A DNA stretch of 64,000 nucleotides from Candidatus Zixiibacteriota bacterium. GTDB taxonomy: Bacteria; Zixibacteria; MSB-5A5; GN15; FEB-12. Below are positions 9,938 to 44,551 of this stretch, in pieces. The notes beneath the pieces are model-generated. The model worked only from the letters and a program-made list of their open reading frames with translations, searched no databases and was not told where the DNA came from. The stretch spans positions 195,089 through 259,088 of the forward strand of contig JAOUBJ010000001.1 in NCBI GenBank assembly GCA_029860345.1, read 5' to 3'. Made by a program: the position numbers and the translations under genes. Numbering within the stretch: position 1 is the first letter of the stretch; each line of letters starts with the position of its first letter.

Positions 9938-9942
9938 CTGCT

Positions 9943-11952: not shown

Positions 11953-11980
11953 ACCAGAACCCCACGGACGGGAGATACAA

Positions 11981-14900
11981 TTGGCCATTCGAACGAACAA
12001 TTTTCTGCCTGGACTTTCGTGCCTCGGTACACTGATGCTGGTATCGGCAGTAGTCACTGGTGCCGACAATCCCGACCTGATTCGCACCCGCAACCAGGGG
12101 GCGGCCTACTATGAGAATCAGGACTACCCGGACGCGGTGCCGCCGTTTGAGAGCTGCGTGGAGTTCGAGGACGCCGTGGCGGCAGATTGGATCAACCTCG
12201 GGCTGGCCTACTATCGAACCAAACAATGGGAAGAAGCCGTTGAGGCGCTTGAGACGGCGGACAGTGACGAGGATAGCTATCCGCATATCGCCTACGCACT
12301 CGGATTGATCCTCAAAAAGAACGATGCCTTCGAAGCAGCCGCAGAGCGATTTGAAAAAGTCGTCGCCCAGGACCCGGCCGAAGCGCCGGCCTATTACAGT
12401 CTGGGTGTCATGTACCAAAAACTGGGTCGTGATGATGATGCTGAGCGAGCCTTTCAAGCGGTCGTGCGCCATGATCCCCAACATGCCAGCGCCCACTACT
12501 ATTTGTTCAAGTATGCCAAAGCAGCCGGACGACGTGACGAAGCCAAACGAGAGATGCGAATCTTCAGCCGACTGCAACGTGAGATACCGGACAAACAACG
12601 CACCGAGGCCGTCTACGAAGAATCGCAATACCTCACGCCCATTATCCCACCCCACCAGAGTTTCATGCCCGCCGATAGCGACCATCGTGGCAGGATCAGG
12701 TTCGTGGATGTTACCAAAGAGGCGGGGCTGCATGGACCGTCACCGTTTGACACTGACTCATTAAATTACCCACAAGTCTATCAGATCAGTTCACTTGATG
12801 GTAGCACCTGCTTGGTTGACCTTGATGGCGACAATGATCTGGACTTGTACGTCGTTAGGTGCAGTGATGAGCGATCGCCTGGTAATAGGCTGTATCTAAA
12901 TGACGGATCCGGCCACTTCTCGGACGTCAGCTCCGGATCTGGGGCCGCCAACACAAGTTGCGGCCATTACGCGGTTGCAGGTGATATCGATAACAACGGT
13001 ACTGTTGATATTGTACTGTTCAATTACCGTGAGATCAAAGTGCTTAGCAACGATGGAACAGCTCACTTCACCGACCTGTCCGATCGAGCAGGTCTTAGAG
13101 ACTCCACTGTGGTCGGAGATGCCGAGTTGATAGACTACGACCACGACGGAGACCTGGACTTACTTATTGGTGTTTACGGATCACCGGGACAGTCACGCGA
13201 TGGCTGGATGATGTACGTCGACAAGCCGGAGGTTGGATTTGACCGATGGCGTGATCTTATGCCCGAGACAAATCGTATTTATCGCAATAACGGGGACGGC
13301 AGTTTTACAAAAGTCGAAGACAGCGTCTGGGGAAACGAAGTACAGGCATGGACTATCGATGTAGAGTGCGGTGACTTCGATAATGATGATGACACCGATT
13401 GGTTATCGGTCAATGTCAACGCTCCTTGTCAGCTTCACCTCAACCTACGGCAGGGGCAATTCGCTACTTCCGAACCACTCGGCGAGGAGGGCGCGGAAAG
13501 GGGGACGGCCTGCGACTTTGACAACGATGGCGACCTGGATGTTCTTCTTGTCAGGGCAAAAGGCGCACACCTTTACTTGAACAGCGGTGATGCAACTTTC
13601 ACAGAGAAGCGTTTGCCGATCCTTACAAAAGCAGTCACCGACGCCAACATTTCCGCGGTTCGGCCGTTTGACTTCGATAACGACGGGCTTATCGACATCA
13701 CTATGACATACGATAAGGGCGACCCGAGTTTTCATGTCAACCTTGGCCAGAACGAGTTTCAGCTTCTCACTAACGGGCCGGCACTAACCACCGCTTTTTC
13801 AGCTTGGGAACCCGATCATCTTACCGTTGGAGACATCGATAACGATGGTGACCTGGATTTGGTTGGACACAACAACCGTATCCTGCCCTTCATTCTCGAA
13901 AACCGGGGTGGCGAAAGCGCCAACTGGCTCAAAGTGCAGCCGGTGGGAATACGGGTGCCAAAGCAGGGCATCGGCGCCAAACTTGAAATCAAAGCCGGAC
14001 CCTACTACCAACGCCGAGACGTTCACCAATGGCCGGTGCATTTTGGACTCGGCGAGGTGGACAAAATCGACGTGCTGCGCATCACCTGGACCAACGGAAT
14101 CGTGCAAAACATGGTCGACGTGCCCACCAACGAAATCTACAAGGTCGAAGAAATCGTCCGCACCGACGCATCGTGCCCCTTCCTGTTCACGTTCGACGGT
14201 GAAAAGTTTAACTACATTAATGACATCCTCGGCGTGTCGGCGATGGGCGTGCCGCTTGACGAAGGGTTCTATCACCACCCCGACCCGGATGAGTATGTCC
14301 GTATCGATGGCACCATGCTCGCGCCTTTCGACGGTCGTTACCTGCTCAGGCTGGCCGCCGAATTGAAAGAGACAGTTTACCTCGACCAGGTGAAACTCAT
14401 TGCCGTAGATCATCCATCGAACGTCGACGTCTACCCCAACGAACGGTTCAGCGAGCCGCCGTTTATGGAACCCGGCTTGCACACCGTGAAAGAAAGACGT
14501 CACCCTGTTGCAGCCACCGACTACCAAGGCAACAACATCCTGCCGCTTATTGAGAAAACCGACCACAGGTATCCGTCTAACATTCCAATGAGCAGCTATG
14601 ACGGATTGGCCCAACGGCACTGGTTCGAATTCGATCTCGGTGACCTGCGCGGGCATGAGACGATCACGATGTTTCTCACCGGATGGATCTACTGGTCGTC
14701 GGCCTCGGCCAATGTAGCTATCTCGCAGAACCGTCAGGTTGGTTTTGAAGTTGTCAGCCTGAGTGTCCCGGATGCCGACGGTGAATGGATCACGGTAATC
14801 GACGACATCGGCCTGCCAAACGGCAAGAACTCCACTATTCCGGTGCATCTGTCGGGACTCTTTCCCTCTGATGACTTTCGCGTCCGCTTGACCACTAACC

Positions 14901-15430
14901 TGGTCGTTTACTGGGATGAAGTTTTTTTCACGGTGGGGACCGAAAGCTATCCCGCCGATCAGATCGAATGTAGACTATCGACAGCCGATCTTCACTATCG
15001 CGGTTTCTCGAACATGCGACAAGACTCGCTGGGTATGGAGTTTTTTGATTACGCCGCAGTCAACAAGATGGGACCCTGGCGCCAGCACTCAGGGCGATAC
15101 ACACGCTACGGCGAGGTCTCGGAACTTCTCACCGAACCGGATGATCGCTATGTCATCTATGGACCGGGTGAGGAGATATCTTTCGAGTTTGAAGCGCCAC
15201 CCCTTCCGAAAGACGGCTGGCGGCGCGACTTTTTTCTGTATGCCTTCGGTTGGATCAAGGACGGCGATCCCAACACCGTCCATTCGGTGACTGTCGGACC
15301 GCTGCCGTTTATCGATATGCCCGGCTACCCGTATGACTCCAGCCTCTCCGGGCGGGCCGATGAAATCGCCGGCGACCTCGCCGACTGGTTGACCAGAGAA
15401 CAGGTCCGCACCGTGAGACCGTTGCGTTGA
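11981..15430 (+). CDS. Large TPR + FG-GAP + ASPIC/UnbV protein with a ~430-aa unassigned C-terminal extension
   Basis: 1149 aa. TTG start with GGGAGA RBS. N-terminal TPRs, several DxDxDGDLD FG-GAP motifs, an UnbV-like block (NWLKVQPVG...GIGAKLEIK...HFGLGE...ITWTNG), then a long unassigned C-terminus. Confidence 0.75.
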   Translation: MAIRTNNFLPGLSCLGTLMLVSAVVTGADNPDLIRTRNQGAAYYENQDYPDAVPPFESCVEFEDAVAADWINLGLAYYRTKQWEEAVEALETADSDEDSYPHIAYALGLILKKNDAFEAAAERFEKVVAQDPAEAPAYYSLGVMYQKLGRDDDAERAFQAVVRHDPQHASAHYYLFKYAKAAGRRDEAKREMRIFSRLQREIPDKQRTEAVYEESQYLTPIIPPHQSFMPADSDHRGRIRFVDVTKEAGLHGPSPFDTDSLNYPQVYQISSLDGSTCLVDLDGDNDLDLYVVRCSDERSPGNRLYLNDGSGHFSDVSSGSGAANTSCGHYAVAGDIDNNGTVDIVLFNYREIKVLSNDGTAHFTDLSDRAGLRDSTVVGDAELIDYDHDGDLDLLIGVYGSPGQSRDGWMMYVDKPEVGFDRWRDLMPETNRIYRNNGDGSFTKVEDSVWGNEVQAWTIDVECGDFDNDDDTDWLSVNVNAPCQLHLNLRQGQFATSEPLGEEGAERGTACDFDNDGDLDVLLVRAKGAHLYLNSGDATFTEKRLPILTKAVTDANISAVRPFDFDNDGLIDITMTYDKGDPSFHVNLGQNEFQLLTNGPALTTAFSAWEPDHLTVGDIDNDGDLDLVGHNNRILPFILENRGGESANWLKVQPVGIRVPKQGIGAKLEIKAGPYYQRRDVHQWPVHFGLGEVDKIDVLRITWTNGIVQNMVDVPTNEIYKVEEIVRTDASCPFLFTFDGEKFNYINDILGVSAMGVPLDEGFYHHPDPDEYVRIDGTMLAPFDGRYLLRLAAELKETVYLDQVKLIAVDHPSNVDVYPNERFSEPPFMEPGLHTVKERRHPVAATDYQGNNILPLIEKTDHRYPSNIPMSSYDGLAQRHWFEFDLGDLRGHETITMFLTGWIYWSSASANVAISQNRQVGFEVVSLSVPDADGEWITVIDDIGLPNGKNSTIPVHLSGLFPSDDFRVRLTTNLVVYWDEVFFTVGTESYPADQIECRLSTADLHYRGFSNMRQDSLGMEFFDYAAVNKMGPWRQHSGRYTRYGEVSELLTEPDDRYVIYGPGEEISFEFEAPPLPKDGWRRDFFLYAFGWIKDGDPNTVHSVTVGPLPFIDMPGYPYDSSLSGRADEIAGDLADWLTREQVRTVRPLR

Positions 15431-20015: not shown

Positions 20016-20933
20016 CTACTCTGCCCAGATCATCCACATGTCGGTGTCGATCGGCTTTTTCAGAGAACGGGTGACTTTCACAAACTTCTCAAGTTCCTCA
20101 TCATCGATGAAGCTCAGCCGCTTGCGCAGCTTGGCGCTTCTGGGAAAAAGCTCCGCCCCCTGCTGCCACACCCGGCGTGCCTCGGCGTGTTTGAGATCCT
20201 TCACGTAGGCATCACCTAAACCGATGTAGGTGAGTTCGAAATAGGCTTTAGGTTGGGACAGATTAAGTTCATTTTGCAGTTTTAGGGCTTGCTTGAAATC
20301 GGCGATCGATTCCGGCGCGTGTCGCATCATGCGCGGCCAATGCAGGTGATTCATGCCGCGACCGTACCAACCACCCCAGTAGGTGGAGTCCTGTTCAATA
20401 ATCAGAGTAAGCTGATCCATCGAGAGGTTCGACTGCTGTCCCTGCTGAACCATACCAAGCGTGTACCACGGCATTTTGTCGACATAAGCCAGAGCCAGAT
20501 GAAATCGAGCGTTTATGGATGTGTGGTTGCGCTCGACAAGGCCCTCGAGGAACTCAATACAGCGATCAAACTCATGCCACCAAATGCAGGCCAGTCGGTA
20601 ACTGTTGCCATGGATAGGCGCGCCCGGGTTAAGCTCCAGAGCAGCCTCAAAATGGTTCAGGGCCGATTCCCGTTCATCCTGCCGCGACAACAACACAGCC
20701 AGCTGGTAGTGCGTGACATCGTCCCCCGGATACTCGGACAACAGTTCCTTAAGCTCTTTTATGGCCATTTCCTCTTCGCTCAGACGTGTTCGTTGAGCCA
20801 TCAGAGGTGAGACCGCGAGACACAGCAGAACCAAAAGAGACACTGGTATCTGGGCGAACTTGCATCTATTTCGCAAGGTTGTTCTCCTCTTCCAGGGTAA
20901 AATCGTATACACCGCCGACCGGACCAACTTCAA
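20016..20933 (-). CDS. TPR-like repeat protein, secreted
   Basis: 305 aa. TTG start overlaps the upstream stop (TTGA). Signal peptide IPVSLLVLLCLAVSPLMA. TPR-like helices (HYQLAVLL, ALNHFEAALELNP). Confidence 0.55.
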   Translation of the reverse strand: MKLVRSAVYTILPWKRRTTLRNRCKFAQIPVSLLVLLCLAVSPLMAQRTRLSEEEMAIKELKELLSEYPGDDVTHYQLAVLLSRQDERESALNHFEAALELNPGAPIHGNSYRLACIWWHEFDRCIEFLEGLVERNHTSINARFHLALAYVDKMPWYTLGMVQQGQQSNLSMDQLTLIIEQDSTYWGGWYGRGMNHLHWPRMMRHAPESIADFKQALKLQNELNLSQPKAYFELTYIGLGDAYVKDLKHAEARRVWQQGAELFPRSAKLRKRLSFIDDEELEKFVKVTRSLKKPIDTDMWMIWAE

Positions 20934-22750
20934 CCTCCAGCTGGTTCGGACACTGTCAGTACTTGGTTGACTTCTACATTTTCGAGCGTCTGAACTCCAC
21001 CTGCCGGCCAGCGGATCACAAGTTTTTCAATGACGTCGTGGCTGCCGAGACCAAAGTGCGCACGCCGACTGCTCTGCGATGCGTAGCCGTTACCGGCCAC
21101 GATTTCGCGAATCATCAGTTGATCGCCGACCGTGAGTTCAAGCCGGGCGCCGACGGCATCTCTGTTGCTCAAGGTGCCGGTGAGATCGACCTCGAACCAA
21201 TTTGCACGGTTGCCGATTTCGTTTCGGTACATCACACCGGCGGCGTCCTGATTGGCCACATACATATCCAGATCGCCGTCGTTATCATAGTCGGCCACGG
21301 CGATTCCCCGACCGTCACGCTTGTCGTCCACACCCGACTCGGCGGCTATCTCGGCAAAGCCATCGAACCCGTCGTTGCGAAACAAGCGACTTGGTTCGTG
21401 TCCTGAACAACTCTTGTTACCCATCATCGGCCAGGTGGCAGCATCCTCCGGGTTGCTGTGAATATCGGTGGCGAACACGGCCAGGTCATACCACCATTCC
21501 TCCTCACCGGCGCTTACGAATCCGTTAACGGCATATATGTCAAGATCACCGTCGTTATCAAAATCCATGAACTTGCAGCCCCAGCCCCAACCACCGTCCC
21601 AGCAATTCGTCTCCACGGCGACATCGACAAAAGACCCATCGCCGAGATTCTCGTGCAGGACGTTGCCTTCCTGGAGAAACTCGTCGGTTGAAATATTGGC
21701 CACATAAATATCAAGCCATCCGTCGTTGTTATAGTCGCCAAACTCGGCGTTCATCCCCTTGCGGCTGTCTATCCCAATGGCTTGGTTTGAAATATTGACA
21801 AAGCCGTCAGCGCCTCGGTAGGTGAACAACCGATCCGGCCCAAAATCGTTGGCCGTGAAAATCTCCATCGTGCCGTTGTTATCAATGTCACCGCAACCGA
21901 CATCAAGCGTCCAACCGCTGTCGGCGATTCCGAGACCACCGGCGACATCGGTGAAAGTTGCATCACCGTTATTACGATACAAGACATTGGCCCCGCCATT
22001 GACAGCCGTTTCAAAGGCATCGTGCATGATACGAGTATGTTCGAGATTCCACAGATCGACATACGGAAAGTAGTTGCCGACATACAAATCAAGATCGCCG
22101 TCGGAATCGTAATCGACAAAGATCACGCCGTTGGCGTTGCCACAGTCGCCGGTGCCGCTCGACTGCGTGACCTCCGTGAACGTTCCGTCGCCATCGGAGT
22201 GAAACAGCCGGTTGCATCCCCATTTGATGACATAGAGGTCGAGGTTCCCATCATTGTCATAGTCACCGAACACCGCCCCCATCGAGGCCCCGTGCTCTTC
22301 GTTGACCCAGGCAACACCGGCCTGGGCGGCCATATCGGTAAACGTAAAGTCACCGTTGTTGTGGTAGAGCAAGTTCGGCTCACCCATACGGGACTGCGTC
22401 ACATATATATCGACATAACCATCACCATCGTAATCGGCGGCGGCAGCGGCGGCGCCCACCGAGGCCATCCAGGGCATGATATTGCCCAGCTTTTCATCCA
22501 GCACCGGTTTGTGATGCCTGTGAGTGATCCCGGCCTGCCGGGTAACATCCGTAAACGCTCTCTGGACCGATTCTTCAGCATTCAAGACGACAGGCAGGGC
22601 GATCAGAAGAAACAACAGTGTCGACCAGCCAAACGCGGCAGAGCATGAGGTGATGAGCCCAAGCCGGCCGCTTTTCTCAAAAACGTCACTGTTCCTTATA
22701 GTTGAGTTGGCTGTCTTTTGCATTGTTCTATGTCTTATGGTTGTTCGCAA
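20930..22750 (-). CDS. FG-GAP/VCBS repeat protein with C-terminal ASPIC/UnbV domain (CRTAC1-family)
   Basis: 606 aa. Multiple DYDGDGYVDIYV / DYDNDGNLDLYV / DYDSDGDLDLYV motifs. C-terminus NWFEVDLTG...AVGARLELT...REIVAGNGYASQSSRRAHFGLG...IRWPAGG. Confidence 0.8.
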   Translation of the reverse strand: MRTTIRHRTMQKTANSTIRNSDVFEKSGRLGLITSCSAAFGWSTLLFLLIALPVVLNAEESVQRAFTDVTRQAGITHRHHKPVLDEKLGNIMPWMASVGAAAAAADYDGDGYVDIYVTQSRMGEPNLLYHNNGDFTFTDMAAQAGVAWVNEEHGASMGAVFGDYDNDGNLDLYVIKWGCNRLFHSDGDGTFTEVTQSSGTGDCGNANGVIFVDYDSDGDLDLYVGNYFPYVDLWNLEHTRIMHDAFETAVNGGANVLYRNNGDATFTDVAGGLGIADSGWTLDVGCGDIDNNGTMEIFTANDFGPDRLFTYRGADGFVNISNQAIGIDSRKGMNAEFGDYNNDGWLDIYVANISTDEFLQEGNVLHENLGDGSFVDVAVETNCWDGGWGWGCKFMDFDNDGDLDIYAVNGFVSAGEEEWWYDLAVFATDIHSNPEDAATWPMMGNKSCSGHEPSRLFRNDGFDGFAEIAAESGVDDKRDGRGIAVADYDNDGDLDMYVANQDAAGVMYRNEIGNRANWFEVDLTGTLSNRDAVGARLELTVGDQLMIREIVAGNGYASQSSRRAHFGLGSHDVIEKLVIRWPAGGVQTLENVEVNQVLTVSEPAGG

Positions 22751-25030: not shown

Positions 25031-27064
25031 TCATTTCGCTTTTGTACGTCGATAGAGCAGCACTCCCATCAGCCCGAACAAGACAAGGGCCACGATTTCC
25101 CCCCACGGTTCCGGCCATGCCCATCCCACGCCGGTCGGTTTGCCCCACTTGTAAGCATAGGCGGCAATGATTACACCCATGAGACCCTCGCCGCCAATCA
25201 ATCCGGAACAGAAGAGGATACCTCTCTCTTTCCGTTGGGTAAGTTCAGATTCATCGTGGCGCGAGCGTGCTTCCACGATTCTGCGGATGATGCCCCCGAA
25301 CAAGATCGGCGTCATGGTGGCTACCGGCAAATAGAGACCGACCGCGAAGGGCAGCGAAGGTAACGAGCAAAGTTCGACAATGGCGCCAAGAAAAGCACCT
25401 ATCAGTACCAACGACCAGGGGATGCCGGACTCCAGAACACCGTCGACCAACGTGCCTATCAGCATGGCCTGTGGCGCGGGCAGATCGACCGAGCCGATTT
25501 GATACGTCTTGACCAGCACCATGACCGCCGCGCAGACAGCCAGCGCCGATGTGGCCGCGCCGATTATTTCACCAACCTGCTGACGCCAGGGTGTCGCACC
25601 GACCAGAAAACCGGTCTTTAAGTCCTGTGAAGTATCCCCGGCGATAGAAGCTGCCACGCAAACAACGGTACCGACAGTGAGCGCGGTCACCTTGCCCAAC
25701 ATATCGGTCCAGCCAAGCCAGACGAACAGACCGCTCACACCCAATAGCGTAACAATCGTCATCCCCGAGGTCGGATTCGATGACACCCCGATCATCCCTA
25801 CGATCCGCGATGATACCGACACAAAGAAGAATGCAAAGAGCGCTATGGCCGGTGCCGCCACCAGGCGCATCATGAAACTGGTGCTCAAACCGAGCACACC
25901 CGGCAGCACGGCCAGGAGCACCACGACCGCCGCCACTCCGAGGAGCACGTAGCGCATGTTCAGATCACGCTCGGTCCGCAGCAGACCGTTTAGTCCGTGG
26001 CTTGCCTTGGCATCCTGGTCACCGAGCCGGGCGCGCATGGCACCGAATGTCATGCGGAACGACTTGAGCATCATCGGGAACGATCGAACAATCGTGATAA
26101 GCCCGCCGAAGGCCACCGCCCCGGCGCCGACATAACGTATGTAGCGCGTCCAGATTTCCGACGGACTCATACTGCCGATGGTCTTGATCGCCTCCGGAAA
26201 GAGCGGCACCGTGAGATGCTCGCCCAGGTGTCCCATGAGTGGAATCAAAACCACCCACGAAACCAAGCTGCCGGCCACCATGATCGCCGACACGCGGTAA
26301 CCCAGAATGTATCCCACCCCCATCAACATCGGCGTGGCCACAATGCCGACCTGGGCCTTCTTGACCAACGGCAGATTGATGGATACTTCGCGATCGATTA
26401 GCTTCAAGAGGTGATTACAACAACGATAGAGCGCTCCAAGACCAAGGCCGAGGAATAGATTACCCGCACCGGCGCCACCTTTGTCGGCGGTAATCAATAC
26501 GCGCGCACAGGCCGTGCCTTCCGGGTATGGCAACGACAGGTGTTCATCCTTGATGAGGAACCGACGCAGCGGAATCATGAACAGGACGCCAAGCAGTCCC
26601 CCGAACAGCGCCAACCCGGTTAGCTGAAACAAGGTTGGATCGACACCCCAGATGTAGAGGGCCGGAATTGTAAAAATAACACCGGAGGCCAACGATGAAC
26701 TGGCCGATCCGATTGTCTGCGCCATATTGCTTTCGAGAATCGTAGAACGACCGAAGAGCCGTCCGGTCAAACGGAAGAAACCGACCGTCATGACGGCCAC
26801 CGGTATCGAAGTCGATACCGTTATACCGGCCAGCAAACCGAGATAAGCGTTGGCGGCGCCAAACAGAACGCCAAACAACACCCCGGCTAATACCGATCTG
26901 ATTGTAAACTCGGCGATACTCTCCTGAGGCGAGATGTACGGTTTGGGCGGGGGACCGGATTGACCGGCTTGGTTGGTAGCGATCGGTTGTGTCCTCTCTG
27001 TGGTTTCGGCTGACCGATTCCTCAGTCTGCACCTTGCGTTCCAATCATAATAACAGCCGCCCAC
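25031..27064 (-). CDS. OPT-family oligopeptide transporter
   Basis: 677 aa, polytopic. The N-terminal EFTIRSVLAGVLFGVLFGAANAYLGLLAGITVSTSIP pattern is characteristic of the OPT superfamily. Adjacent to the S9 peptidase. Confidence 0.75.
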   Translation of the reverse strand: MGGCYYDWNARCRLRNRSAETTERTQPIATNQAGQSGPPPKPYISPQESIAEFTIRSVLAGVLFGVLFGAANAYLGLLAGITVSTSIPVAVMTVGFFRLTGRLFGRSTILESNMAQTIGSASSSLASGVIFTIPALYIWGVDPTLFQLTGLALFGGLLGVLFMIPLRRFLIKDEHLSLPYPEGTACARVLITADKGGAGAGNLFLGLGLGALYRCCNHLLKLIDREVSINLPLVKKAQVGIVATPMLMGVGYILGYRVSAIMVAGSLVSWVVLIPLMGHLGEHLTVPLFPEAIKTIGSMSPSEIWTRYIRYVGAGAVAFGGLITIVRSFPMMLKSFRMTFGAMRARLGDQDAKASHGLNGLLRTERDLNMRYVLLGVAAVVVLLAVLPGVLGLSTSFMMRLVAAPAIALFAFFFVSVSSRIVGMIGVSSNPTSGMTIVTLLGVSGLFVWLGWTDMLGKVTALTVGTVVCVAASIAGDTSQDLKTGFLVGATPWRQQVGEIIGAATSALAVCAAVMVLVKTYQIGSVDLPAPQAMLIGTLVDGVLESGIPWSLVLIGAFLGAIVELCSLPSLPFAVGLYLPVATMTPILFGGIIRRIVEARSRHDESELTQRKERGILFCSGLIGGEGLMGVIIAAYAYKWGKPTGVGWAWPEPWGEIVALVLFGLMGVLLYRRTKAK

Positions 27065-27121
27065 AGATTATACCAAGCGGTTTTTTCATATACGAACACA
27101 TGCAAGAGAATCAAGCATCTG

Positions 27122-27151
27122 TTGACAAACCACATTCTCAAGCTGTAATTA
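27122..27151 (+). promoter_or_regulatory. Candidate sigma70-type promoter for the methyltransferase operon
   Basis: TTGACA at 27122-27127, an 18-nt spacer, then TAATTA at 27146-27151, ~60 nt upstream of the TTG start at 27213. Promoter rules for this lineage are unknown. Confidence 0.3.
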
Positions 27152-27212
27152 CTGTCTGCAAGAGATATGCGGTCGGCGCAGACGACCCGACTTTATCGAC
27201 AAGGAGAGAGCA

Positions 27213-28670
27213 TTGAGACCAACTGTAAGATTCCTCAGCGATGAACTGATCGGCCGCATCCTGTCCGAGGCTCGTGAGCTGATCTGCAAACTGGGTGTTG
27301 AGATTCATAACGAGAACGTCCTGGGACTACTCGGTGATCATGGCGCCCGAATCGATTCAAGCAAACATCGCGCCTTTTACACCGACGACATCATCGACCA
27401 ATCATTGAAAGCGGCGCCGTCGTCGTTTTGTCTGTACGATTCCTCAGGAAATCAAGCCGTCGATCTTTCCGGCATGAATGTCAACTTCACCCCCGGATCG
27501 GCGGCCATTAACATTCTGGATTCAGACTCTCTCAAGTCCCGCCGACCGACAACCGCCGACTACGTCAAGTATGCAAGGCTGGTGGGCGGCATGGACCATA
27601 TCGGTTCTCAGTCAACGGCCCTGGTCGCAGACGACGTCCCCGGCAGAATATCCGACAGCTATCGCCTGTACCTCAGTCTGATGCACTGTCATAAACCTGT
27701 CGTGACCGGCGCTTTCACAATCGATGCCTTTGAGATCATGAAAGAGCTTCAGCTCACTGTGCGCGGCTCCGGTCAGGCGCTAAAGGAGAAGCCGCTGGCT
27801 GTTTTCTCATGCTGCCCCACTTCGCCCCTGAAATGGTGCGATGTCACCTCGCAGAACGTGGTCGACTGTGCCAAACACTCGATACCGGTCGAGTACATTT
27901 CGATGCCGTTGTCCGGATTCATGGCCCCGGTAACCCTGGTCGGTTCGCTGGTGCAACACACGGCTGAAACGTTGAGCGGTCTTGCTATCAGTCAATTGAC
28001 AAACCCCGGCACTCCGGTGTTGTACGGTGGTTCTCCGGCTGTTTTCGACCTGCGATACGAGACGACGCCGATGGGCGCTATCGGCACCATGATGATCGAC
28101 TGCGCATACAACGAAATCGGCAAACATCTCGGTCTGCCCACCCAGGCTTACATCGCCCTCAGCGATGCCAAACTGCTCGATGCCCAGGCCGGGCTGGAAA
28201 CATCGATGGGCGCAACGTTGGCGGCGCTGGCCGGGATCAACAACATCTCAGGCCCGGGCATGCTCGATTTTGAAAGTTGTTTCAGTTTGGAAAAACTTGT
28301 CGTTGACAACGAAATCTGTGGCATGGTGCATAGAATGGTCAAAGGTATCGAGCCCAAAGAAGACTTCCCCGCCCTGCCCCGCTTTGAAGAACTGCTGCGC
28401 GACGATCACCTGCTGATCTCGCCGCACACGCTCAAGTATCTCAATGAAGAGATCTATCTCCCCGGCCCGGTAATCGACCGCGCCAACCGTTCCCGCTGGG
28501 CCGAGGAAGGCAGCCTCACCATTCAGCAACGGGCGGCACAGGAAGTAAAACGAATTCTTTCAGAACAGACCGACTCGCCTCTGCCGCAGGATGTCGGCGA
28601 CGAATTGACCCGCCAGATGACCGCCGCTGCCCGCACCCATGAGATGGAGCAGTTACCAGAGTACGCTTGA
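27213..28670 (+). CDS. MttB-superfamily methyltransferase, non-pyrrolysine class (quaternary amine:corrinoid methyltransferase-like)
   Basis: 485 aa. TTG start with AAGGAGAGAG RBS. Overall MttB-like sequence (LSDELIGRILSEARELICKLGVEIHNENVL..., ISGPGMLDFE). There is no in-frame TAG, so it is not the Pyl-containing TMA enzyme. Confidence 0.75.
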   Translation: MRPTVRFLSDELIGRILSEARELICKLGVEIHNENVLGLLGDHGARIDSSKHRAFYTDDIIDQSLKAAPSSFCLYDSSGNQAVDLSGMNVNFTPGSAAINILDSDSLKSRRPTTADYVKYARLVGGMDHIGSQSTALVADDVPGRISDSYRLYLSLMHCHKPVVTGAFTIDAFEIMKELQLTVRGSGQALKEKPLAVFSCCPTSPLKWCDVTSQNVVDCAKHSIPVEYISMPLSGFMAPVTLVGSLVQHTAETLSGLAISQLTNPGTPVLYGGSPAVFDLRYETTPMGAIGTMMIDCAYNEIGKHLGLPTQAYIALSDAKLLDAQAGLETSMGATLAALAGINNISGPGMLDFESCFSLEKLVVDNEICGMVHRMVKGIEPKEDFPALPRFEELLRDDHLLISPHTLKYLNEEIYLPGPVIDRANRSRWAEEGSLTIQQRAAQEVKRILSEQTDSPLPQDVGDELTRQMTAAARTHEMEQLPEYA

Positions 28671-29380
28671 TGAAACGCCAGGTTACAATTGAACTCAAGG
28701 CCACCGTGCCCTCCTCGGCCGACGTTCTTAACGCCCAGTCTGTCCCCAAAACGGCTCACGATGACAGCTCGTTACAAGCGCTGGCCGAGCAAGGGATAGC
28801 TATCTTTCGCAAGCTGGCTCAGCCGATAGGCATGTATGCTCAAGTTGAGTTGCCTGAGTTTGAGAGGATCTACCACGGCGTGGGAGCCAACGACAATGTC
28901 GCCCCCTTGCCGCATATTGCGCAGGCATCCGATAAACTGGCCTTGTATTGCGTCACTCTCGGACAGGAAGTCTGCGCCAGGATATCGCAGCTTTTTGACA
29001 GCCATGAGTATCCTCTGGCCACCATGCTTGACGCCGCCGCCTCGACCGGCGCGGAACTTGCCGCCGAGGTTGTGCAAAAGGAATTTGAACTGCAATTGGA
29101 CAGTGATAAACTAAGCAGTGCACAAACCGGCGTGATGCCGTTCAGCCCCGGCTACTGCGGCTGGCATGTGAGCGGGCAGCGCGCCCTTTTTGATTTTCTA
29201 AAACCGGAGGAGATCGGTGTAAGTCTGAATGAGAGCTGTTTGATGCAACCATTGAAATCAATCAGCGGCGTCATGGTATCAGGCATCAAAGAGATTTTTT
29301 ACTTCGAAGATGTTTTTCCGTTTTGCGCCTCTTGCGCCACCCGTTCCTGTCGGGCGCGGATTGCATCGCTTGAAATGTGA
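28670..29380 (+). CDS. Methionine-synthase (MetH) activation-domain-like protein
   Basis: Track start is TTG 28667, but ATG 28670 (TGATG overlap with mttB-like) is more likely. SPGYCGWHVSGQRALFDFL...IGVSLNESCLMQPLKSISGV resembles the vitamin-B12-dependent methionine synthase activation domain. Cys-rich tail FCASCATRSC. Confidence 0.6.
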   Translation: MKRQVTIELKATVPSSADVLNAQSVPKTAHDDSSLQALAEQGIAIFRKLAQPIGMYAQVELPEFERIYHGVGANDNVAPLPHIAQASDKLALYCVTLGQEVCARISQLFDSHEYPLATMLDAAASTGAELAAEVVQKEFELQLDSDKLSSAQTGVMPFSPGYCGWHVSGQRALFDFLKPEEIGVSLNESCLMQPLKSISGVMVSGIKEIFYFEDVFPFCASCATRSCRARIASLEM

Positions 29381-29410
29381 ACGAACGACCCCAAAGGTAC
29401 AGGGAGAGAT

Positions 29411-30046
29411 ATGAACATACTTGAAGAATTGTCCCAGTCGTTACAAAGAGGTGTGGACAAAGATGTCGTAGCGCACACCCAGAAGGCTATCGACAGCGGC
29501 CTGGCCGTTAAGCAGATTCTTGACGACGGCTTGATCGCCGGTATGTCGATCGTTGGTGAACGATTCAAAAAACACGAACTGTTTCTACCCCATGTGCTAT
29601 TGGCCGCCAAGGCCATGTACGCCGGACTGGACCTCCTGAAGCCGCTGATGCTGAAGGAAGGCATTCCCACGCTGGGAAAAGTCGTGATCGGCACTGTGCA
29701 TGGCGACCTGCATGACATCGGCAAGAACCTCGTCGGTATCATGCTCAAAGGGGCCGGCTTCGAAATAATCGATTTGGGCAAAGATGTGCCCGCGGAGAAC
29801 TTCGTCGAGGCCGCCATCGCCGAGAACGCTCAGGTGATCGGCTTGTCGGCGCTGTTGACCACCACCATGCCGACCATGAAGCAAGTAGTCGACCTGGCCA
29901 CCGAACAAAATGTGCGCGACAAGTTCAAAATCGTTATCGGCGGCGCCCCTTTGTCCGATGAATATGCGCAGGAGATCGGCGCCGATGCCTACTGTTTTGA
30001 TGCCGTCAGCGCCGTCGACCGCGTCAAGCAGTTTGTCGAGAACTGA
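29411..30046 (+). CDS. Cobalamin-binding corrinoid protein (MtbC/MttC/MtgC-like)
   Basis: 211 aa. B12-binding DxHxxG motif (GTVHGDLHDIGKNLV), SALLTTTM and GGAP motifs. RBS AGGGAGAG. Confidence 0.9.
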   Translation: MNILEELSQSLQRGVDKDVVAHTQKAIDSGLAVKQILDDGLIAGMSIVGERFKKHELFLPHVLLAAKAMYAGLDLLKPLMLKEGIPTLGKVVIGTVHGDLHDIGKNLVGIMLKGAGFEIIDLGKDVPAENFVEAAIAENAQVIGLSALLTTTMPTMKQVVDLATEQNVRDKFKIVIGGAPLSDEYAQEIGADAYCFDAVSAVDRVKQFVEN

Positions 30047-30048
30047 AC

Positions 30049-30945
30049 GTGTGCCCACCACTTCTCGAACAGATCAACTCAGGCAGTCTCTTTGTCGGCG
30101 ACGGCGCTATGGGGACGATGCTGTTTGCGCACGGTTTGCAAACGGGTGACTGCCCCGAGAAGTGGAACCTGGATCATCCGAAGACGCTTGAAGAAATCGC
30201 GCGGCTTTATCATCAGGCCGGAGCCGATATCGTCAGCACCAATACGTTCGGGGGATCGGCGCTCAAACTAAAACAGTACGGTCTGGGTGATCGCACCGAA
30301 GAGATCAACGCAGCCGCCGTGTGTGCCGTGCGAAATGCTATCGGTGACGAAGCATACCTCTCGGTTTCATGCGGACCGTGCGGACAATTGATCGAACCGC
30401 TCGGCGATGTCTCTGAGGACGCTGTGTTCGACAGCTTCCTCAGACAATTGCGCGGCGCAACTCAGACGCCGGTCGATTTGATCTGCGTCGAGACCATGAC
30501 TGACCTATCCGAAACTAAACTGGCTGCAAAAGCAGCCCAAACCGCCGCACCGGGAGTACCGGTTGCCGTTACCATGACTTTTGATGAAACGCCCAACGGT
30601 TTTTACACAATGATGGGCGTGAGTATCGTGCAAGCGGCACAGGAACTATCCGACGCCGGGGTGGACATCATAGGCTCCAACTGTGGCAACGGCATCGAGA
30701 ACATGATCAAGATTGCGCACGAGTTCAAAGCCTGCTCATCTCTGCCGATAATGATTCAGTCCAACGCCGGGCTACCGGTGCTCAATGGCGACCGGCTCAC
30801 CTATCCCGAGACACCTGAGTTCATGGCCGATCAGTGCCGCGAACTTGTCGAACTGGGCGTGAGCATCATCGGTGGTTGTTGCGGCACTACGCCCGAGCAT
30901 ATCCGGGCGATACGTGCGATGGTCGACGGACGCGGCGTGGACTAA
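30049..30945 (+). CDS. Homocysteine S-methyltransferase-domain protein (MetH N-terminal-module-like)
   Basis: 298 aa. GTG start 2 nt after the corrinoid gene. FVGDGAMGTMLFAHGL at the N-terminus and Zn-ligand motifs SNCGNG and GGCCGTTPEHI. Confidence 0.8.
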   Translation: MCPPLLEQINSGSLFVGDGAMGTMLFAHGLQTGDCPEKWNLDHPKTLEEIARLYHQAGADIVSTNTFGGSALKLKQYGLGDRTEEINAAAVCAVRNAIGDEAYLSVSCGPCGQLIEPLGDVSEDAVFDSFLRQLRGATQTPVDLICVETMTDLSETKLAAKAAQTAAPGVPVAVTMTFDETPNGFYTMMGVSIVQAAQELSDAGVDIIGSNCGNGIENMIKIAHEFKACSSLPIMIQSNAGLPVLNGDRLTYPETPEFMADQCRELVELGVSIIGGCCGTTPEHIRAIRAMVDGRGVD

Positions 30946-31058
30946 GAAACACACTCCGCCCCGCCGTCGGCGGGCCATCCCTCTCAAGAGGGGACCCTAT
31001 AAATGAGTCTTGGCCCTACATGCGCCACCAACCTCATGCTGAGCGGAGTCGAAGCATG
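30946..31058. repeat. Hairpin-module cluster, including the left 49-bp direct repeat (30946-30994) and a GAGCGGAGTCGA-loop hairpin (31035-31058)
   Basis: 30946-30994 matches 34865-34913 at 46/49. It contains hairpins cccgcc-gtc-ggcggg and ccctc-tcaa-gaggg. 31035-31058 is catgct/agcatg around the loop gagcggagtcga. Confidence 0.8.
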
Positions 31059-31411
31059 ACACAGCAGAACCGTGAGTAACCGCGAAATGGCTTTGTTTTG
31101 CGGAAAAAAGCTTTTCCCGGGTCCCCCCTCTGAGCAAATGGGTTCGTTTGGTGGGTTTTTGTTTCCCGGTAATAGAATCGATGGTGAATGCGCTGGCCTG
31201 AATAGACACTTATGCATCATTGTGGTCCTTTATAGAATGATGAGAACCCGTGATTTGGATTGGGTCGGTAGTGTTTATGTGCGAGGTGTGGAGTCAGCCC
31301 TGCAGGTGTCGGCACGGGTGCGAAATGTGATTGCCCACGGGAAGACCATGGAGTACCTTTCGTTGATTTGGAATTGCAACTGTGGTATGTGGGTCTTTGG
31401 AGGAGAAGTAG

Positions 31412-32866
31412 ATGGAGGAAATCTATCCCAAACAGCCGTTTGACGATGTCCATCGGTTCATTGGCGAACTCAAAGCTGATGAACACACGGTTGATGGTCT
31501 TCAGATCGTCGCCCAATACTCATTGGATAAGCCGGGTCCAATAAGGATAGTCATCGAGGGCGATTCAGAAGTTCGCAAGACGTTAAGAACCGTACTCGAC
31601 AAGAACCCACACTCGCTGTCAGTAAAGAGCACCGACAAAGACGAAGGTGGAAAGCGCATTCTCATGGATGATGTATGGCTAAAAGACTGGCACAGTTCGG
31701 AGTTTCCCGACTTTCTGGGCAGGTTTGGGACCAGATCACCTGACGATCGACTGTTCCGCCCGATTGTGGAACTTAGGGCAAGTAGCCTACTTGCCACCCC
31801 TGAAACATTCATGGGTGATTCGGAACGACCTCACATTGAGTACTTCTTCCCAGCGCAACACAATTTCTGGGCGTTGTACGTTTTGGAGGGTCAGCGGGAA
31901 TCACAGTCCGGGTTGGATCCAGAACGTGGTTGCGAGGTCTTGATTGGCAGAGACCTGCCATTTAGTGCAAAGCTATTGCCGTCTAGACTGGAGAGGTTCG
32001 ACCAGGCAAGCGGATACATGTGGACCTCCCGGAATCACTCGCTGAAGCTCAAGCTCGATGGCGAAGCTGGGGAGGTCTCTCTTAAGGAGTGTATGCCATA
32101 CGCAGACGCTGTTTCCCTCGCGGTCTCGGTGGCAACCCGCACTAGAACGGCATGGCTTCGTGCCCACATAGGATTGCGTAAGGAAGTCTCTCGGTTTATG
32201 GTTGCACGGCTAGAACTCGAGGAGCGGGGGGTCAGCTATGCCCCGTGGCTCATCGATGTTGGATCATCCTTGAGGATGTACCTTGACACTGCGGTCAATA
32301 GAATCCGGGAGTTCAGCAATCAAGGTATAGATCTCCGTGTTGCTCTAGAGTCCTGGCATCAGGCAAGACTTCAGACCAATACTACGAATCAGTTCCTATT
32401 GCTCTTTGTGTGTTTGGAGAAGCTAAAGGATCTTTATGCCAGGAAGGCTGGACTGCTACAAATCCAATCAGATGCAGAGTACATAAAGCTCGCATCCGCT
32501 ATAGACGGTGTGCTCGGAGATTGTATTGCGGAACCAAAGATAAGGCGGCAGGTCAGCTCTAAACTCCGAGAACTAAATCGACCAACTTTTCGCTCAGTGC
32601 TGCAGCGAATGCTTGATCACTATAAAGTTCCATGGCGCGATTTGTACCCACCAGATGCAAAACTGGGATTTATTCGGACACGTGATACGTTGTTGCACTC
32701 AACCGACCCTGTACCACCTGACAGACTCTACAACGATATGGAGCGGGTACAAGCTATTGTCGATAGGCTATTGCTCAGATTGCTCGGATGGGATGATCTG
32801 TCCGCTACGCCTTCTGAATACACGCTGGAGCGTCTATCGAAGGTTCACGACAATGAGGCTTCGTAG
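31412..32866 (+). CDS. Hypothetical protein with a C-terminal Rx4H (HEPN-like) motif
   Basis: 484 aa with a strong RBS (GGAGGAGAAGTAG ATG). GC is ~10 points lower than neighbouring genes on sampled lines. The C-terminal helical half contains FIRTRDTLLHS (R-x4-H). No other family recognised. Confidence 0.6.
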   Translation: MEEIYPKQPFDDVHRFIGELKADEHTVDGLQIVAQYSLDKPGPIRIVIEGDSEVRKTLRTVLDKNPHSLSVKSTDKDEGGKRILMDDVWLKDWHSSEFPDFLGRFGTRSPDDRLFRPIVELRASSLLATPETFMGDSERPHIEYFFPAQHNFWALYVLEGQRESQSGLDPERGCEVLIGRDLPFSAKLLPSRLERFDQASGYMWTSRNHSLKLKLDGEAGEVSLKECMPYADAVSLAVSVATRTRTAWLRAHIGLRKEVSRFMVARLELEERGVSYAPWLIDVGSSLRMYLDTAVNRIREFSNQGIDLRVALESWHQARLQTNTTNQFLLLFVCLEKLKDLYARKAGLLQIQSDAEYIKLASAIDGVLGDCIAEPKIRRQVSSKLRELNRPTFRSVLQRMLDHYKVPWRDLYPPDAKLGFIRTRDTLLHSTDPVPPDRLYNDMERVQAIVDRLLLRLLGWDDLSATPSEYTLERLSKVHDNEAS

Positions 32867-35221: not shown

Positions 35222-36511
35222 TTAACCGACAATCCCTGCAAAACCCGCCGGGTCGGTGTCACCTTCGGTGTTGATGACGAGAACGCGGGATGTGGAATCA
35301 ATGTGCAAAAACTCACGGGCAGGTGTAAACGCAGGATCGTTAACGAGTGTCGTGAGAGCTGCCAAACCGGCCGCGCCTGACTCGCCGGAGATTATCCGTG
35401 GGTCATCGTCTGTCGGATAAAAACAGCTCCGCATTGCCTCACGACCGGAGTCGTCACTGATGGACACGAACAGATCATAGCCCTGTTTCACGAAGGGCCA
35501 GGCAATCGGCGATGGTGTGCCGCAATTCAACCCGGCCATAATCGATGATGGGTCGCCTGCAATCGTTATTGGTTCACCATCGGTGGTTTGTATCGACTGC
35601 ATGCAACAGTCGGCAGTCAGTGGTTCGACCGAAACAAGTTTCGGATGCGGTTCGGGATAGATGCGGTTGTAATACCACGCAGCAGCAGCCGCCAGCGCCC
35701 CGACACCGGCTTGCACGATCACCACGTCGACCTGGTTGGCGGCATCTTTATGGATCTCTTCGAACATGGTCAGGTATCCCGCTTGTATCCACCGAGGTAT
35801 CTGCTCATAACCGGGCCAGCCGGTGTCGGAGAGTATCTGCCAGTCACGCGCAAGCGCGTCTTCTCTGCAACGAGCCACAGCAGCATCATAAGATCCATCC
35901 ACAACGATAACTTCAGCACCCTCGTTGCGGATGTTTTCGATTCGCGCCGGGACCGTTTCTTTTGGCATGTAGATCACTGCCTTTTGGGCAAGTTGGCGCG
36001 CCACCCAGGCGACACCGCGGCCATGGTTGCCGTCCGTTGCCGTAGTGAACGTGAAACTCCCGGACGGCAACGGTGAATCTCTGTAGAACCGCTCGGACGG
36101 CGGGCAACTTTGAGAGTTTTCGTTGAGCAACTGTTTGATGACCTGATAGATTGCATAGGTGGAGCCGAGCGCTTTGAAAGCGTTCAACCCGAATCGATGC
36201 GATTCGTCCTTGACCAACAACTCCCCAATGCCGAGTCGCTCAGCCAACACCGGCAGCGACACCAACGGCGTCGGCGCGTACTCTTTGAGTGATCGATGCA
36301 CCGATGACGCTTCGCAGCTTTTGAACTCGGAATTGATCGCATCATCCCAGATGGGAGCAACCTGTCGGTGCCTGTTGATTTCAAAGCATGGTTCCATGGC
36401 GAACAAGCTACAACTATCGCCACTTGCGGTCAATGATTTCGAGTCGACAAAAAAAGCGGGACCTCCGGTTGAAACCGGAAGCCCCGCCCCGCGGACGGCG
36501 GAGAGGGTCAT
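35222..36511 (-). CDS. dpaL: Diaminopropionate ammonia-lyase (PLP-dependent, fold type II)
   Basis: 429 aa. YAPTPL...LLVKDESHRFGLNAFKALGSTYAI matches the DAP ammonia-lyase PLP-lysine region as I recall it from E. coli YgeX. The start ATG 36511 overlaps the upstream stop (ATGA). An alternative internal start is ATG 36397. Confidence 0.75.
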   Translation of the reverse strand: MTLSAVRGAGLPVSTGGPAFFVDSKSLTASGDSCSLFAMEPCFEINRHRQVAPIWDDAINSEFKSCEASSVHRSLKEYAPTPLVSLPVLAERLGIGELLVKDESHRFGLNAFKALGSTYAIYQVIKQLLNENSQSCPPSERFYRDSPLPSGSFTFTTATDGNHGRGVAWVARQLAQKAVIYMPKETVPARIENIRNEGAEVIVVDGSYDAAVARCREDALARDWQILSDTGWPGYEQIPRWIQAGYLTMFEEIHKDAANQVDVVIVQAGVGALAAAAAWYYNRIYPEPHPKLVSVEPLTADCCMQSIQTTDGEPITIAGDPSSIMAGLNCGTPSPIAWPFVKQGYDLFVSISDDSGREAMRSCFYPTDDDPRIISGESGAAGLAALTTLVNDPAFTPAREFLHIDSTSRVLVINTEGDTDPAGFAGIVG

Positions 36512-43534: not shown

Positions 43535-44551
43535 ATGCGTTTACTTTTCATTGGCTTTGGCACCGTCGTTCAGGGTCTTTCGGAACTTCTTGCAGAGAAG
43601 GCAACAGAACTCAAACAAAAACACGGGCTTGATTTGAAAGTGGTCGGAATCTCCGACATGCTCAAAGGTTGTGTCTACGCACCTGACGGCATCGATCTGG
43701 CCCAGGCACTGGAGGCCGCGAAGAACGGCGACCTCAAACAATTGCCCAATCAATTCGAGGCTGACGCGCTGGCCATGATCGATGCAGCCGATGCCGACCT
43801 GATGGTCGAAGCTACCTATACCGATATCAAGACCGGTCAACCGGCAACATCGCACATCAAGGCCGCTTTGGCTAAAGGGATGCATGTGACCACCACCAAC
43901 AAAGGTCCGGTGGCTCTTTTCTTGCAAGAGCTAAAAAAGCTGGCCGATGCAAACGGTGTGAAATTTCTGTATGAAGGCACCGTTATCAGTGGTACCCCTC
44001 TGCTGAATCTCATTCGCGAGACGCTGGCCGGTAGTCATATCAGTGAGATCAAGGGGATACTTAACGGCACGACCAATTATATCCTGTCACAGATGGAACA
44101 AGGTCAGCCCTACGATGCGGTCCTTAAGAAGGCGCAGGAGTTGGGTTACGCCGAAGCTGTTCCGGACGCCGACGTACTCGGCTGGGATGCTCTGGCCAAG
44201 ATTACTATTCTGGCCAACGCTGTTTTCGGTGTCGATGCAAAACCTGACGCGTTCTCGTGTCAGGGCATCACCGAGATCAGCAATGACGCTATCGCCGAAG
44301 CCAAAGCCAACGGAAAGAGATTCAAGCTGATCGGAACGCTGAAACGGGATGGTGACTCTGTTGTCGGCAGCGTTGCGCCGGTGCAGATGGACCTTTCACA
44401 CCCGCTGGCCGGTGTGATGGGCGCCACCAACGCCGTAACGATCAGCACCGATACGCTGGGCGACGTCACGATCGTCGGACCCGGCGCCGGGCGAGTCGAA
44501 ACCGGCTACAGCGTGCTTATCGATATCATCAGCATCGGAGGTTCACGATGA
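43535..44551 (+). CDS. Homoserine dehydrogenase-family oxidoreductase (short form, no ACT domain)
   Basis: 338 aa. N-terminal Rossmann motif FIGFGTVVQG, then TTNKGPVA, YEGTVISGTPLLNLIRE, GILNGTTNYILSQM, GYAEAVPDADVLGWDALAKITILAN. Confidence 0.75.
   Translation: MRLLFIGFGTVVQGLSELLAEKATELKQKHGLDLKVVGISDMLKGCVYAPDGIDLAQALEAAKNGDLKQLPNQFEADALAMIDAADADLMVEATYTDIKTGQPATSHIKAALAKGMHVTTTNKGPVALFLQELKKLADANGVKFLYEGTVISGTPLLNLIRETLAGSHISEIKGILNGTTNYILSQMEQGQPYDAVLKKAQELGYAEAVPDADVLGWDALAKITILANAVFGVDAKPDAFSCQGITEISNDAIAEAKANGKRFKLIGTLKRDGDSVVGSVAPVQMDLSHPLAGVMGATNAVTISTDTLGDVTIVGPGAGRVETGYSVLIDIISIGGSR

Follow-up and report, generated by a model that had tools for sequence, protein, structure and literature searches.

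Where does the methyl group of methionine come from when parts resembling the cobalamin-dependent methionine synthase MetH are encoded beside a methyltransferase of the MttB superfamily? This question is raised by a 64,000-nt stretch of a metagenome-assembled genome (MAG) of candidate division Zixibacteria (contig JAOUBJ010000001.1, positions 195,089 to 259,088; hereafter the window), in which four closely packed genes at 27213-30945 encode an MttB homologue (MT1), a MetH reactivation-domain protein (ACT), a corrinoid protein (CoP) and a homocysteine methyltransferase (MT2, gene hcy). An original prediction made from the sequence had described them as a disassembled MetH whose folate module is replaced by the MttB homologue, and had proposed a corrinoid-dependent methyl route to methionine. 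Following profile searches, structure modeling and a comparison of related loci, we find that the four genes probably form a self-contained corrinoid methyl-transfer relay, which would make methionine from a non-folate methyl donor; domain content, operon conservation and an exchange of the acceptor module among sister clades all argue for such a route.

The four genes are translationally coupled, and the spacing that had been predicted was found exactly in the sequence: the MT1 and ACT genes overlap by 1 nt (TGATG), a 30-nt gap carrying a GGGAGAG ribosome-binding site lies between the ACT and CoP genes, and 2 nt separate the CoP and MT2 genes (Table 1). MT1 is read from a TTG start located 6 nt downstream of an AAGGAG ribosome-binding site (27201-27206), and ACT from the ATG at 28670, with a TTG at 28667 as an alternative start. 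In the leader, TTGACA (27122-27127) and TGTAAT (27144-27149), spaced by 16 nt, were spotted by eye, and the promoter scan made no call; at the other end, the operon may stop at the GC-rich hairpin, although this lacks a T-run on the + strand. Gene calls on identical public metagenome contigs match the four open reading frames (ORFs), and the products are deposited at NCBI as MDH3889569.1 to MDH3889572.1, of which the second (ACT) carries only a 'hypothetical' annotation.

Table 1. Features of the four-gene operon, in window coordinates.
Feature	Length	Position	Strand	Basis
Intergenic leader between the divergent OPT transporter gene and the operon		27065-27212	+	
MT1 gene, MttB-superfamily methyltransferase	485 aa	27213-28670	+	Pfam MTTB PF06253
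ACT gene, stand-alone MetH reactivation-domain protein (predicted)	236 aa	28670-29380	+	Pfam Met_synt_B12 PF02965
CoP gene, corrinoid (cobalamin-binding) protein	211 aa	29411-30046	+	Pfam B12-binding_2 + B12-binding
MT2 (HCY) gene, zinc homocysteine S-methyltransferase domain protein (predicted)	298 aa	30049-30945	+	Pfam S-methyl_trans PF02574
GC-rich hairpin just 3′ of the last gene		30956-30973	not assigned	terminator-like pattern, − strand only

Hidden Markov model searches and motif inspection agreed with the domain identities first given to the four products, namely a non-pyrrolysine MttB-family protein, a MetH reactivation protein, a DxHxxG corrinoid protein and a zinc homocysteine protein. 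As the acceptor decides what the system would make, MT2 was considered in detail. It matched Pfam S-methyl_trans (E 2.1e-66, 225 bits), and its best PDB match was the homocysteine module of Thermotoga maritima MetH (1Q7M, 1.6e-44), with BHMT reaching only 1e-20. Its zinc ligands C212, C277 and C278 align with C207, C272 and C273 of T. maritima MetH, and the GGCCGTTPEH motif (GGCCGTTPEHI in the window) is identical in both; 43 orthologues keep the Cys triad as well as the FET glutamate and the SNAG asparagine, all of which align with MetH. The score against NCBIfam PRK07534 was 220 bits, under its 338-bit cut-off. MT2 is thus predicted to be a MetH-type zinc homocysteine S-methyltransferase. 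A pterin-binding identity of this product had been named as the finding that would overturn the reading; homocysteine-binding models were matched instead, and neither it nor the other three operon proteins gave a pterin-binding or MtrH match in Pfam and NCBIfam.

CoP matched both Pfam corrinoid-binding families (PF02607, E 8.5e-21; PF02310, E 7e-29) and carries the motifs D99xH101xxG104 (D99-L-H101-D-I-G104), S146xL148 and G177G178, which are conserved in 51 orthologues and predict a base-off/His-on corrinoid protein. Its NCBIfam scores, 210 bits for TIGR02370 (pyl_corrinoid), 210 for MtgC, 207 for MtbC and 143 for MetH, place it by similarity nearest the methylamine-type (MttC/MtgC-like) corrinoid proteins and farther from MetH. 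The description as a disassembled MetH therefore fits the homocysteine and activation parts, and does not fit CoP, which is of methylamine type (210 versus 143 bits). Against the canonical MetH model TIGR02082, three separate proteins scored 154.5, 143.2 and 30.9 bits, far under the cut-off of 1010.85.

ACT matched Met_synt_B12 with E 1.7e-11 and 44.5 bits (cut-off 25), and in profile searches of the PDB it hit 1J6R, the structure of T. maritima TM0269 (E 1.1e-8), and E. coli MetH 1MSK (6e-3). An AlphaFold2 model of high confidence (mean predicted local distance difference test 90.4) was searched with Foldseek, and all 19 of the top 19 PDB matches were MetH activation domains, with 1J6R the best (TM-score 0.80, target-normalized); profile and model thus identify ACT as a probable TM0269-type stand-alone reactivation domain. 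A clade-invariant SPGYCGW motif is present, and the C-terminus carries C219-x2-C222-x4-C227 (window 29324-29350). Together with C163, these cysteines are invariant in the clade and lacking in TM0269, which ends ahead of this extra segment, and they may form a metal site. In a small sample, CxxCxxxxC occurred in ACT proteins accompanied by a homocysteine methyltransferase (L097, L098, L127, L134 and L160) and was lacking in ACT-like proteins of loci without HCY (L136, L140, L143, L145 and L162).

MT1 belongs to the Pfam MTTB family (E 1.4e-75, 254.7 bits against a cut-off of 25, residues 3-468), and its score against TIGR02369, the model of true pyrrolysine MttB, was 355.7 bits, under the 525-bit cut-off. 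The PDB matches were MtgB (9YCE/2QNE, 1e-53) and MttB (7XCL, 9e-50), and MT1 is about 28% identical to both Desulfitobacterium hafniense MtgB and Methanosarcina barkeri MttB. Its reading frame is uninterrupted, with Leu316 aligned to pyrrolysine; of the 80 orthologues, 78 have Leu there and the other 2 have Met. Rfam PYLIS_3, the mttB pyrrolysine insertion element, matched inside the homologue from this codon onward, above the gathering threshold in three loci (40.5-45.7 bits; L073 8943-9042, L008 8948-9045 and L018 8946-9045) and at 34.8 bits in the window (28160-28257). It was rejected as a recoding signal because no UAG stands at its start, where 76 of 80 orthologue genes have Leu codons (CTC 23, CTG 21, TTG 17, CTT 6, CTA 5, TTA 4), and it looks like coding-sequence similarity to genuine mttB.

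Next, we asked how widely the arrangement is kept. MT1 relatives were found in 507 species-representative genomes among those scanned, and the best 80 of these 507, all from MAGs and 68-76% identical to the window MT1, were taken as the orthologue set. Their hosts, from at least ten phyla, are Zixibacteria, Ignavibacteria/Bacteroidota, Phycisphaerae/Planctomycetota, Acidobacteriota (including Aminicenantes), Gemmatimonadota, WOR-3, TA06, Stahlbacteria, Fischerbacteria and Desulfobacterota. By tblastn, the gene order mttB-act-cop-hcy was recovered with equally tight junctions: among 63 informative loci, that is, those with at least 2.5 kb 3′ of mttB, the compact cluster was present in 53, and two more carried an insertion, so the arrangement occurs far beyond chance. 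Closed MAG chromosomes are among the carriers (CP070742.1, CP070813.1, CP070756.1, CP070674.1, CP070685.1, CP070744.1, CP070718.1, CP070706.1, CP070686.1 and OY760907.1). MT1 is the most conserved product (68-76% identity to the orthologues), followed by CoP (57-73%), HCY (53-71%) and ACT (35-53%). Clustering of ORFs over the 80 loci found no further gene family in more than 5 of them; ORF clusters 4, 5 and 9, which had appeared as conserved neighbors, were rejected as antisense ORF artifacts in GC-rich DNA. At loci lacking HCY no alternative MT2 was seen; its place is taken by unrelated genes, whose products include a solute-binding protein, a kinase, a ferric reductase, a superoxide dismutase and a sulfotransferase.

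The strongest comparative support comes from the sister clades. In a sister group (H311, 575 confirmed metagenome matches), the neighborhoods of 80 metagenome loci whose MttB homologues are 39-54% identical to the window MT1 contained a corrinoid protein in 36 loci, RamA/RACo in 8, an MtrH-type pterin methyltransferase in 7 and a URO-D-type methyltransferase in 2, while MetH-type ACT occurred in 10 and HCY in 5. The ACT/HCY gene orders differ there, for example cop-hcy-act-mttB and hcy-act-mttB. The same kind of MT1 is thus paired either with a pterin methyltransferase and RamA, a catabolic layout, or with HCY and MetH-type reactivation. By this comparison the MT2 position behaves as an exchangeable slot, probably homocysteine-specific in the window clade, and the pattern supports homocysteine as the acceptor and a folate-linked module that has been replaced, not merely displaced, as had been proposed for the operon. 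At six sister-group loci (L100, L101 at 1468-4118, L108, L114, L120 and L146), a saccharopine-dehydrogenase-family gene (~388 aa) stands directly 3′ of the MttB homologue, and RamA, a corrinoid protein and an MtrH-type methyltransferase often share these clusters; this neighbor may hint at what that branch has as substrate or product.

In the window clade, tblastn with the sister-group queries found no RamA, MtrH-type or URO-D gene within ~8 kb of the 80 loci. A pterin methyltransferase was likewise not found there by ORF clustering or with the MtrH-type tblastn query, the PF00809 type not being searched directly, and the 32 large ORFs scanned across the window held no MetH, MetE or pterin-binding domain and no RamA/DUF1638 partner. 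These results bear on an alternative in which CoP, MT2 and ACT are a shared-corrinoid split methionine synthase, fed with methyl-tetrahydrofolate by a pterin methyltransferase elsewhere in the genome, and the MttB homologue is only an alternative or competing loader, so that the route would not be folate-independent. A distant enzyme could indeed share CoP in the manner of MtgBCDE, as the gene for the pterin module MtgD of Ruegeria pomeroyi, without which neither function of that system works, lies at a great distance from mtgC (PMC12478193), and MtgB and MtgE of Phaeobacter are viewed as competing partners of MtgC/D (2025 preprint). Nevertheless, MT1 and MT2 are translationally coupled in dozens of distant genomes, with no pterin methyltransferase found nearby, whereas sister clades that use one keep it, together with RamA, beside the MttB gene. 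We consider the folate-fed reading unlikely and retain the relay from a non-folate donor.

Which donor would this relay use? The glycine-betaine site of MtgB is formed by Y97 and F356 (cation-pi) and by R312 and H348 (carboxylate), and R312 is reported to be conserved in every characterized member, whose substrates are all acidic quaternary amines (2026 MtgB study, PMC13080624). In the window MT1, the residues Y97, R312, H348 and F356 are replaced by S96, Q311, S346 and E354, respectively, giving the pocket signature S96/Q311/Y313/S346/E354; all 80 orthologues share S96, Q311 and E354, and 78 of them also have Ser at position 346, where the other 2 have Ala. Because all MtgB substrate-binding residues are replaced, glycine betaine, carnitine, proline betaine, γ-butyrobetaine and phosphocholine are unlikely donors; the first three had originally been put forward. 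The loss of both basic residues with the gain of an invariant Glu suggests a cationic substrate without an acidic group.

The signature is not confined to close relatives. A search of 1.84 billion cluster representatives placed the MT1 clade at the tip of a large uncharacterized radiation, which forms an identity continuum from 60% down to 30% and mostly keeps an S-[H/Q]-Y-S-E signature; 40 positions are identical across the window clade, MtgB and MttB. A phylogeny including MtgB, MtcB, MtpB and MtyB had been suggested as a check; in a rough, unbootstrapped neighbor-joining tree of 102 cluster representatives with MtgB and MttB, reconstructed from PDB alignments, as references, the MT1 radiation stood apart from both MtgB and MttB. 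P0242 (L167, contig Ga0117909_1049356, 627-3550), a divergent member that is 52% identical, has the same signature, but the gene coming after its own encodes a protein of the Na+/H+ antiporter family (PF03553), and act-cop-hcy are absent there; the signature is therefore not strictly tied to the operon. A protein search with P0242 for a cultured host gave MAG proteins only.

Based on these data, a working scheme can be drawn. MT1 would bind a methylated compound, most likely a cationic methyl-ammonium without carboxylate or phosphate, and methylate the Co(I) form of CoP; MT2 would activate homocysteine as a thiolate and move the methyl group of CH3-Co(III) onto it, so that methionine and Co(I) are formed; and ACT would restore oxidized Co(II) by reductive methylation with S-adenosylmethionine (SAM) and an external electron donor, as in MetH. 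We infer the MT1 and MT2 steps, with the direction of transfer and homocysteine as acceptor, from family chemistry and conserved catalytic residues, and SAM-dependent reactivation from the homology of ACT to TM0269 and MetH. Mixing of MT1, CoP and MT2 modules from different systems is reported to work in vitro (PMC13618148), a shared corrinoid protein joins MttB-family enzymes to a homocysteine module in Roseobacters (PMC12478193), and some Zixibacteria MAGs are reported to have 'MttB' as the sole corrinoid methyltransferase and to lack MetH (2025 survey, PMC12484752). A bolder extension, which we regard as improbable, is that the pocket marks an enzyme that works without pyrrolysine on a methyl-ammonium donor bearing no acidic group, such as trimethylamine, choline or some other methylamine ubiquitous in sediments, with the invariant Glu354 in place of the aromatic/Arg pocket of betaine enzymes. 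The operon would then act, independently of folate, as the principal methionine synthase in numerous uncultured anaerobic phyla (among them Zixibacteria, Ignavibacteria, Phycisphaerae, Aminicenantes, WOR-3 and TA06), and MetH is reported to be missing from some of these.

The same four proteins might instead serve catabolism or another methyl use, with substrate demethylation as the purpose and methionine a mere sink, or with methyl-CoP feeding a different acceptor such as HgcA or a methyltransferase encoded elsewhere. Transfer from MttB to HgcA has been proposed for Zixibacteria, Desulfobacterota and Spirochaetota MAGs (PMC12484752), and SAR11 BHMT serves partly as a demethylation route (PMC12478193). 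The HgcA idea, however, rests on docking, ORF clustering found neither hgcAB nor a downstream catabolic gene conserved near the operon in the 80 loci, and MT1 is accompanied by a dedicated MetH-type homocysteine module and a low-turnover, SAM-dependent type of reactivation protein, not by the ATP-dependent RamA of high-flux catabolic systems; we think this alternative quite improbable. Reverse or different chemistry, in which methyl groups pass from methionine or another thioether through the corrinoid to an amine, or MT2 methylates another thiol, seems the least plausible of the readings: MtsA-type corrinoid systems do take methyl groups from thioethers and the MT1 pocket is unlike that of any characterized member, but MT2 keeps the motifs of the MetH homocysteine module near verbatim (DGAMGT, TNTFG, ETM.D, SNCGNG, NAGLP and GGCCGTTPEHI), all characterized PF02574 enzymes known to us methylate homocysteine or selenohomocysteine, and we know of no methyl transfer from methionine to Co(I).

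Several observations weigh against the relay as a folate-independent methionine synthase. One or more partner genes were missing nearby in 8 of the 63 informative loci, and ORF clustering linked no transporter or regulator to the operon in the 80 loci. In ACT, the PGY part of the region corresponding to RxxxGY, which we take from the E. coli MetH literature to be the SAM-binding motif of the MetH activation domain, is invariant, but the Arg of the motif is replaced by Pro in the window ACT and is found in just 36 of the 59 orthologues compared, which makes SAM use less certain. A SAM or B12 riboswitch, a marker of methionine-biosynthesis operons, was seen neither in the window nor in the eight other loci searched: no Rfam family reached the gathering threshold anywhere in the window, nothing relevant appeared between 26800 and 27500 at E≤5, so the operon is without a SAM, cobalamin or T-box leader, and no riboswitch was found 5′ of the operon in eight diverse loci. 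Since the pocket has neither the MtgB substrate residues nor pyrrolysine, it is family membership that points to a 'methylated amine' as donor. In Electryoneota MAGs, full-length MetH co-occurs with the cluster (PMC9324843), and the cluster need not be the main methionine synthase there. Finally, our literature search found no biochemical or genetic test of any member of the four-gene cluster.

The cluster and the hypothesis are already in print. Williams et al. (2022, Environ Microbiol, PMC9324843) described a four-component cluster in MAGs of Ca. Electryoneota and in 'diverse bacteria', comprising a non-pyrrolysine MttB/MtgB homologue, a homocysteine S-methyltransferase, a corrinoid protein and an activation protein, and independently hypothesized a novel corrinoid-dependent methionine synthesis with an unknown methyl donor, without a biochemical test. 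The window operon is very probably another member, in Zixibacteria; the orthology is judged from composition and not sequence by sequence. As a variant, the operon belongs with the three-component and split-MetH systems already known; what is added here is the disfavoring of betaine-type donors, the distribution over 507 species-level genomes, the acceptor swap among sister clades, and a TM0269-type ACT with a Cys motif.

A close known system is MtgBCDE, which combines a glycine betaine demethylase with a split methionine synthase and occurs in R. pomeroyi, Phaeobacter inhibens and Sinorhizobium meliloti (Mausz et al., 2025, PMC12478193). There, too, an MT1 of the MttB family and a MetH-type homocysteine module are distinct proteins, functionally linked by a corrinoid protein that is likewise separate; Ruegeria genetics showed that the corrinoid protein MtgC and the pterin methyltransferase MtgD serve both glycine-betaine demethylation by MtgB and methionine synthesis by MtgE, and reactivation involves RamA/DUF1638, with the genes co-located in S. 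meliloti (PMC12478193). The two differ in several respects. The essential pterin-binding MtgD has no counterpart linked to the window operon, which carries a MetH activation-domain protein in place of RamA and DUF1638; MtgB acts on glycine betaine, whereas the window MT1 lacks the betaine-binding residues; MtgC is related to CmuA, whereas the window CoP resembles MttC/MtgC; the hosts are aerobic Proteobacteria, whereas those of the window clade are mostly uncultured phyla of anoxic sediment; and 4YYC, the MttB homologue of the S. meliloti type, matches the window MT1 only distantly (106 bits).

The classical three-component systems, MtgB-MtgC-MtgA of D. hafniense, MtcB/MtpB/MtyB/MthB of E. limosum and MttB-MttC-MtbA of Methanosarcina, share with the window an MT1 of the MttB superfamily (TIM-barrel fold), a His-on corrinoid protein and an MT2, and the composition of the window operon fits this MT1-CoP-MT2 layout. 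In these systems, however, MT2 is an MtrH-type tetrahydrofolate or a URO-D-type coenzyme M methyltransferase and not a homocysteine domain, reactivation is by the ATP-dependent RamA, and the substrate residues Y97/R312/H348/F356 or pyrrolysine are not kept in the window MT1. In T. maritima, ACT has its counterpart in TM0269 and MT2 is most similar to the homocysteine module of TM0268, but TM0268 combines the modules for homocysteine, folate and cobalamin in a single polypeptide and takes its methyl group from methyl-tetrahydrofolate. BHMT/MmuM-type enzymes also make methionine from homocysteine and a non-folate donor with the zinc homocysteine domain PF02574; BHMT, however, transfers the methyl group directly, as a single protein and without a corrinoid, and the window MT2 is much closer to MetH. 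MesA, MesB, MesC and MesD are folate-independent core methionine synthases, of which MesA-C are thought to draw on corrinoid proteins (Price et al., 2021, PMC7857596). They have MetE-like catalytic domains using the corrinoid proteins of methanogenesis or the Wood-Ljungdahl pathway, whereas the four operon proteins gave no MetE-family Pfam match and combine a MetH-type catalytic domain with a corrinoid protein, a loader and a reactivation protein that are all dedicated to it.

If the relay operates as proposed, hundreds of uncultured sediment and groundwater species would make methionine, and hence SAM, without spending methyl-tetrahydrofolate, their methyl source being an environmental or metabolic methyl compound, and methylamine or osmolyte turnover and cobamide demand would be tied to core anabolism in anoxic habitats. 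It would also give a first function and acceptor to a very large uncharacterized branch of the MttB superfamily, with a pocket unlike that of every studied member. The value as a discovery is limited by the 2022 publication of the cluster and hypothesis; MDH3889569.1 to MDH3889572.1 offer a compact four-protein system for reconstitution.

The surroundings of the operon were inspected as well. Divergent from it lies an OPT-family oligopeptide transporter gene (25031-27064, −; TIGR00733, E 1e-104), which recurs in only one of the 80 loci (L055), making a functional link doubtful. Downstream, a 123-aa ORF (31072-31443, +) is probably no gene, being uncalled in public assemblies, and a 484-aa ORF (31412-32866, +) matches nothing in Pfam or NCBIfam and is no conserved neighbor of the operon at other loci. 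A 429-aa PLP-dependent (PALP) enzyme (35222-36511, −) and a homoserine dehydrogenase (43535-44551, +), the latter being the only other methionine-pathway gene in the window, lie 4-13 kb downstream and belong to aspartate-family or sulfur amino-acid metabolism; neither is a conserved operon neighbor. The window further encodes large FG-GAP/ASPIC-UnbV and TPR repeat proteins (8165-15430, +; 20930-22750, −), a PQQ-propeller/dockerin protein of 1657 aa (54673-59646) and a protein of 1232 aa that has a Por secretion tail (60270-63968), which are typical surface proteins of the FCB group and unrelated to the operon.

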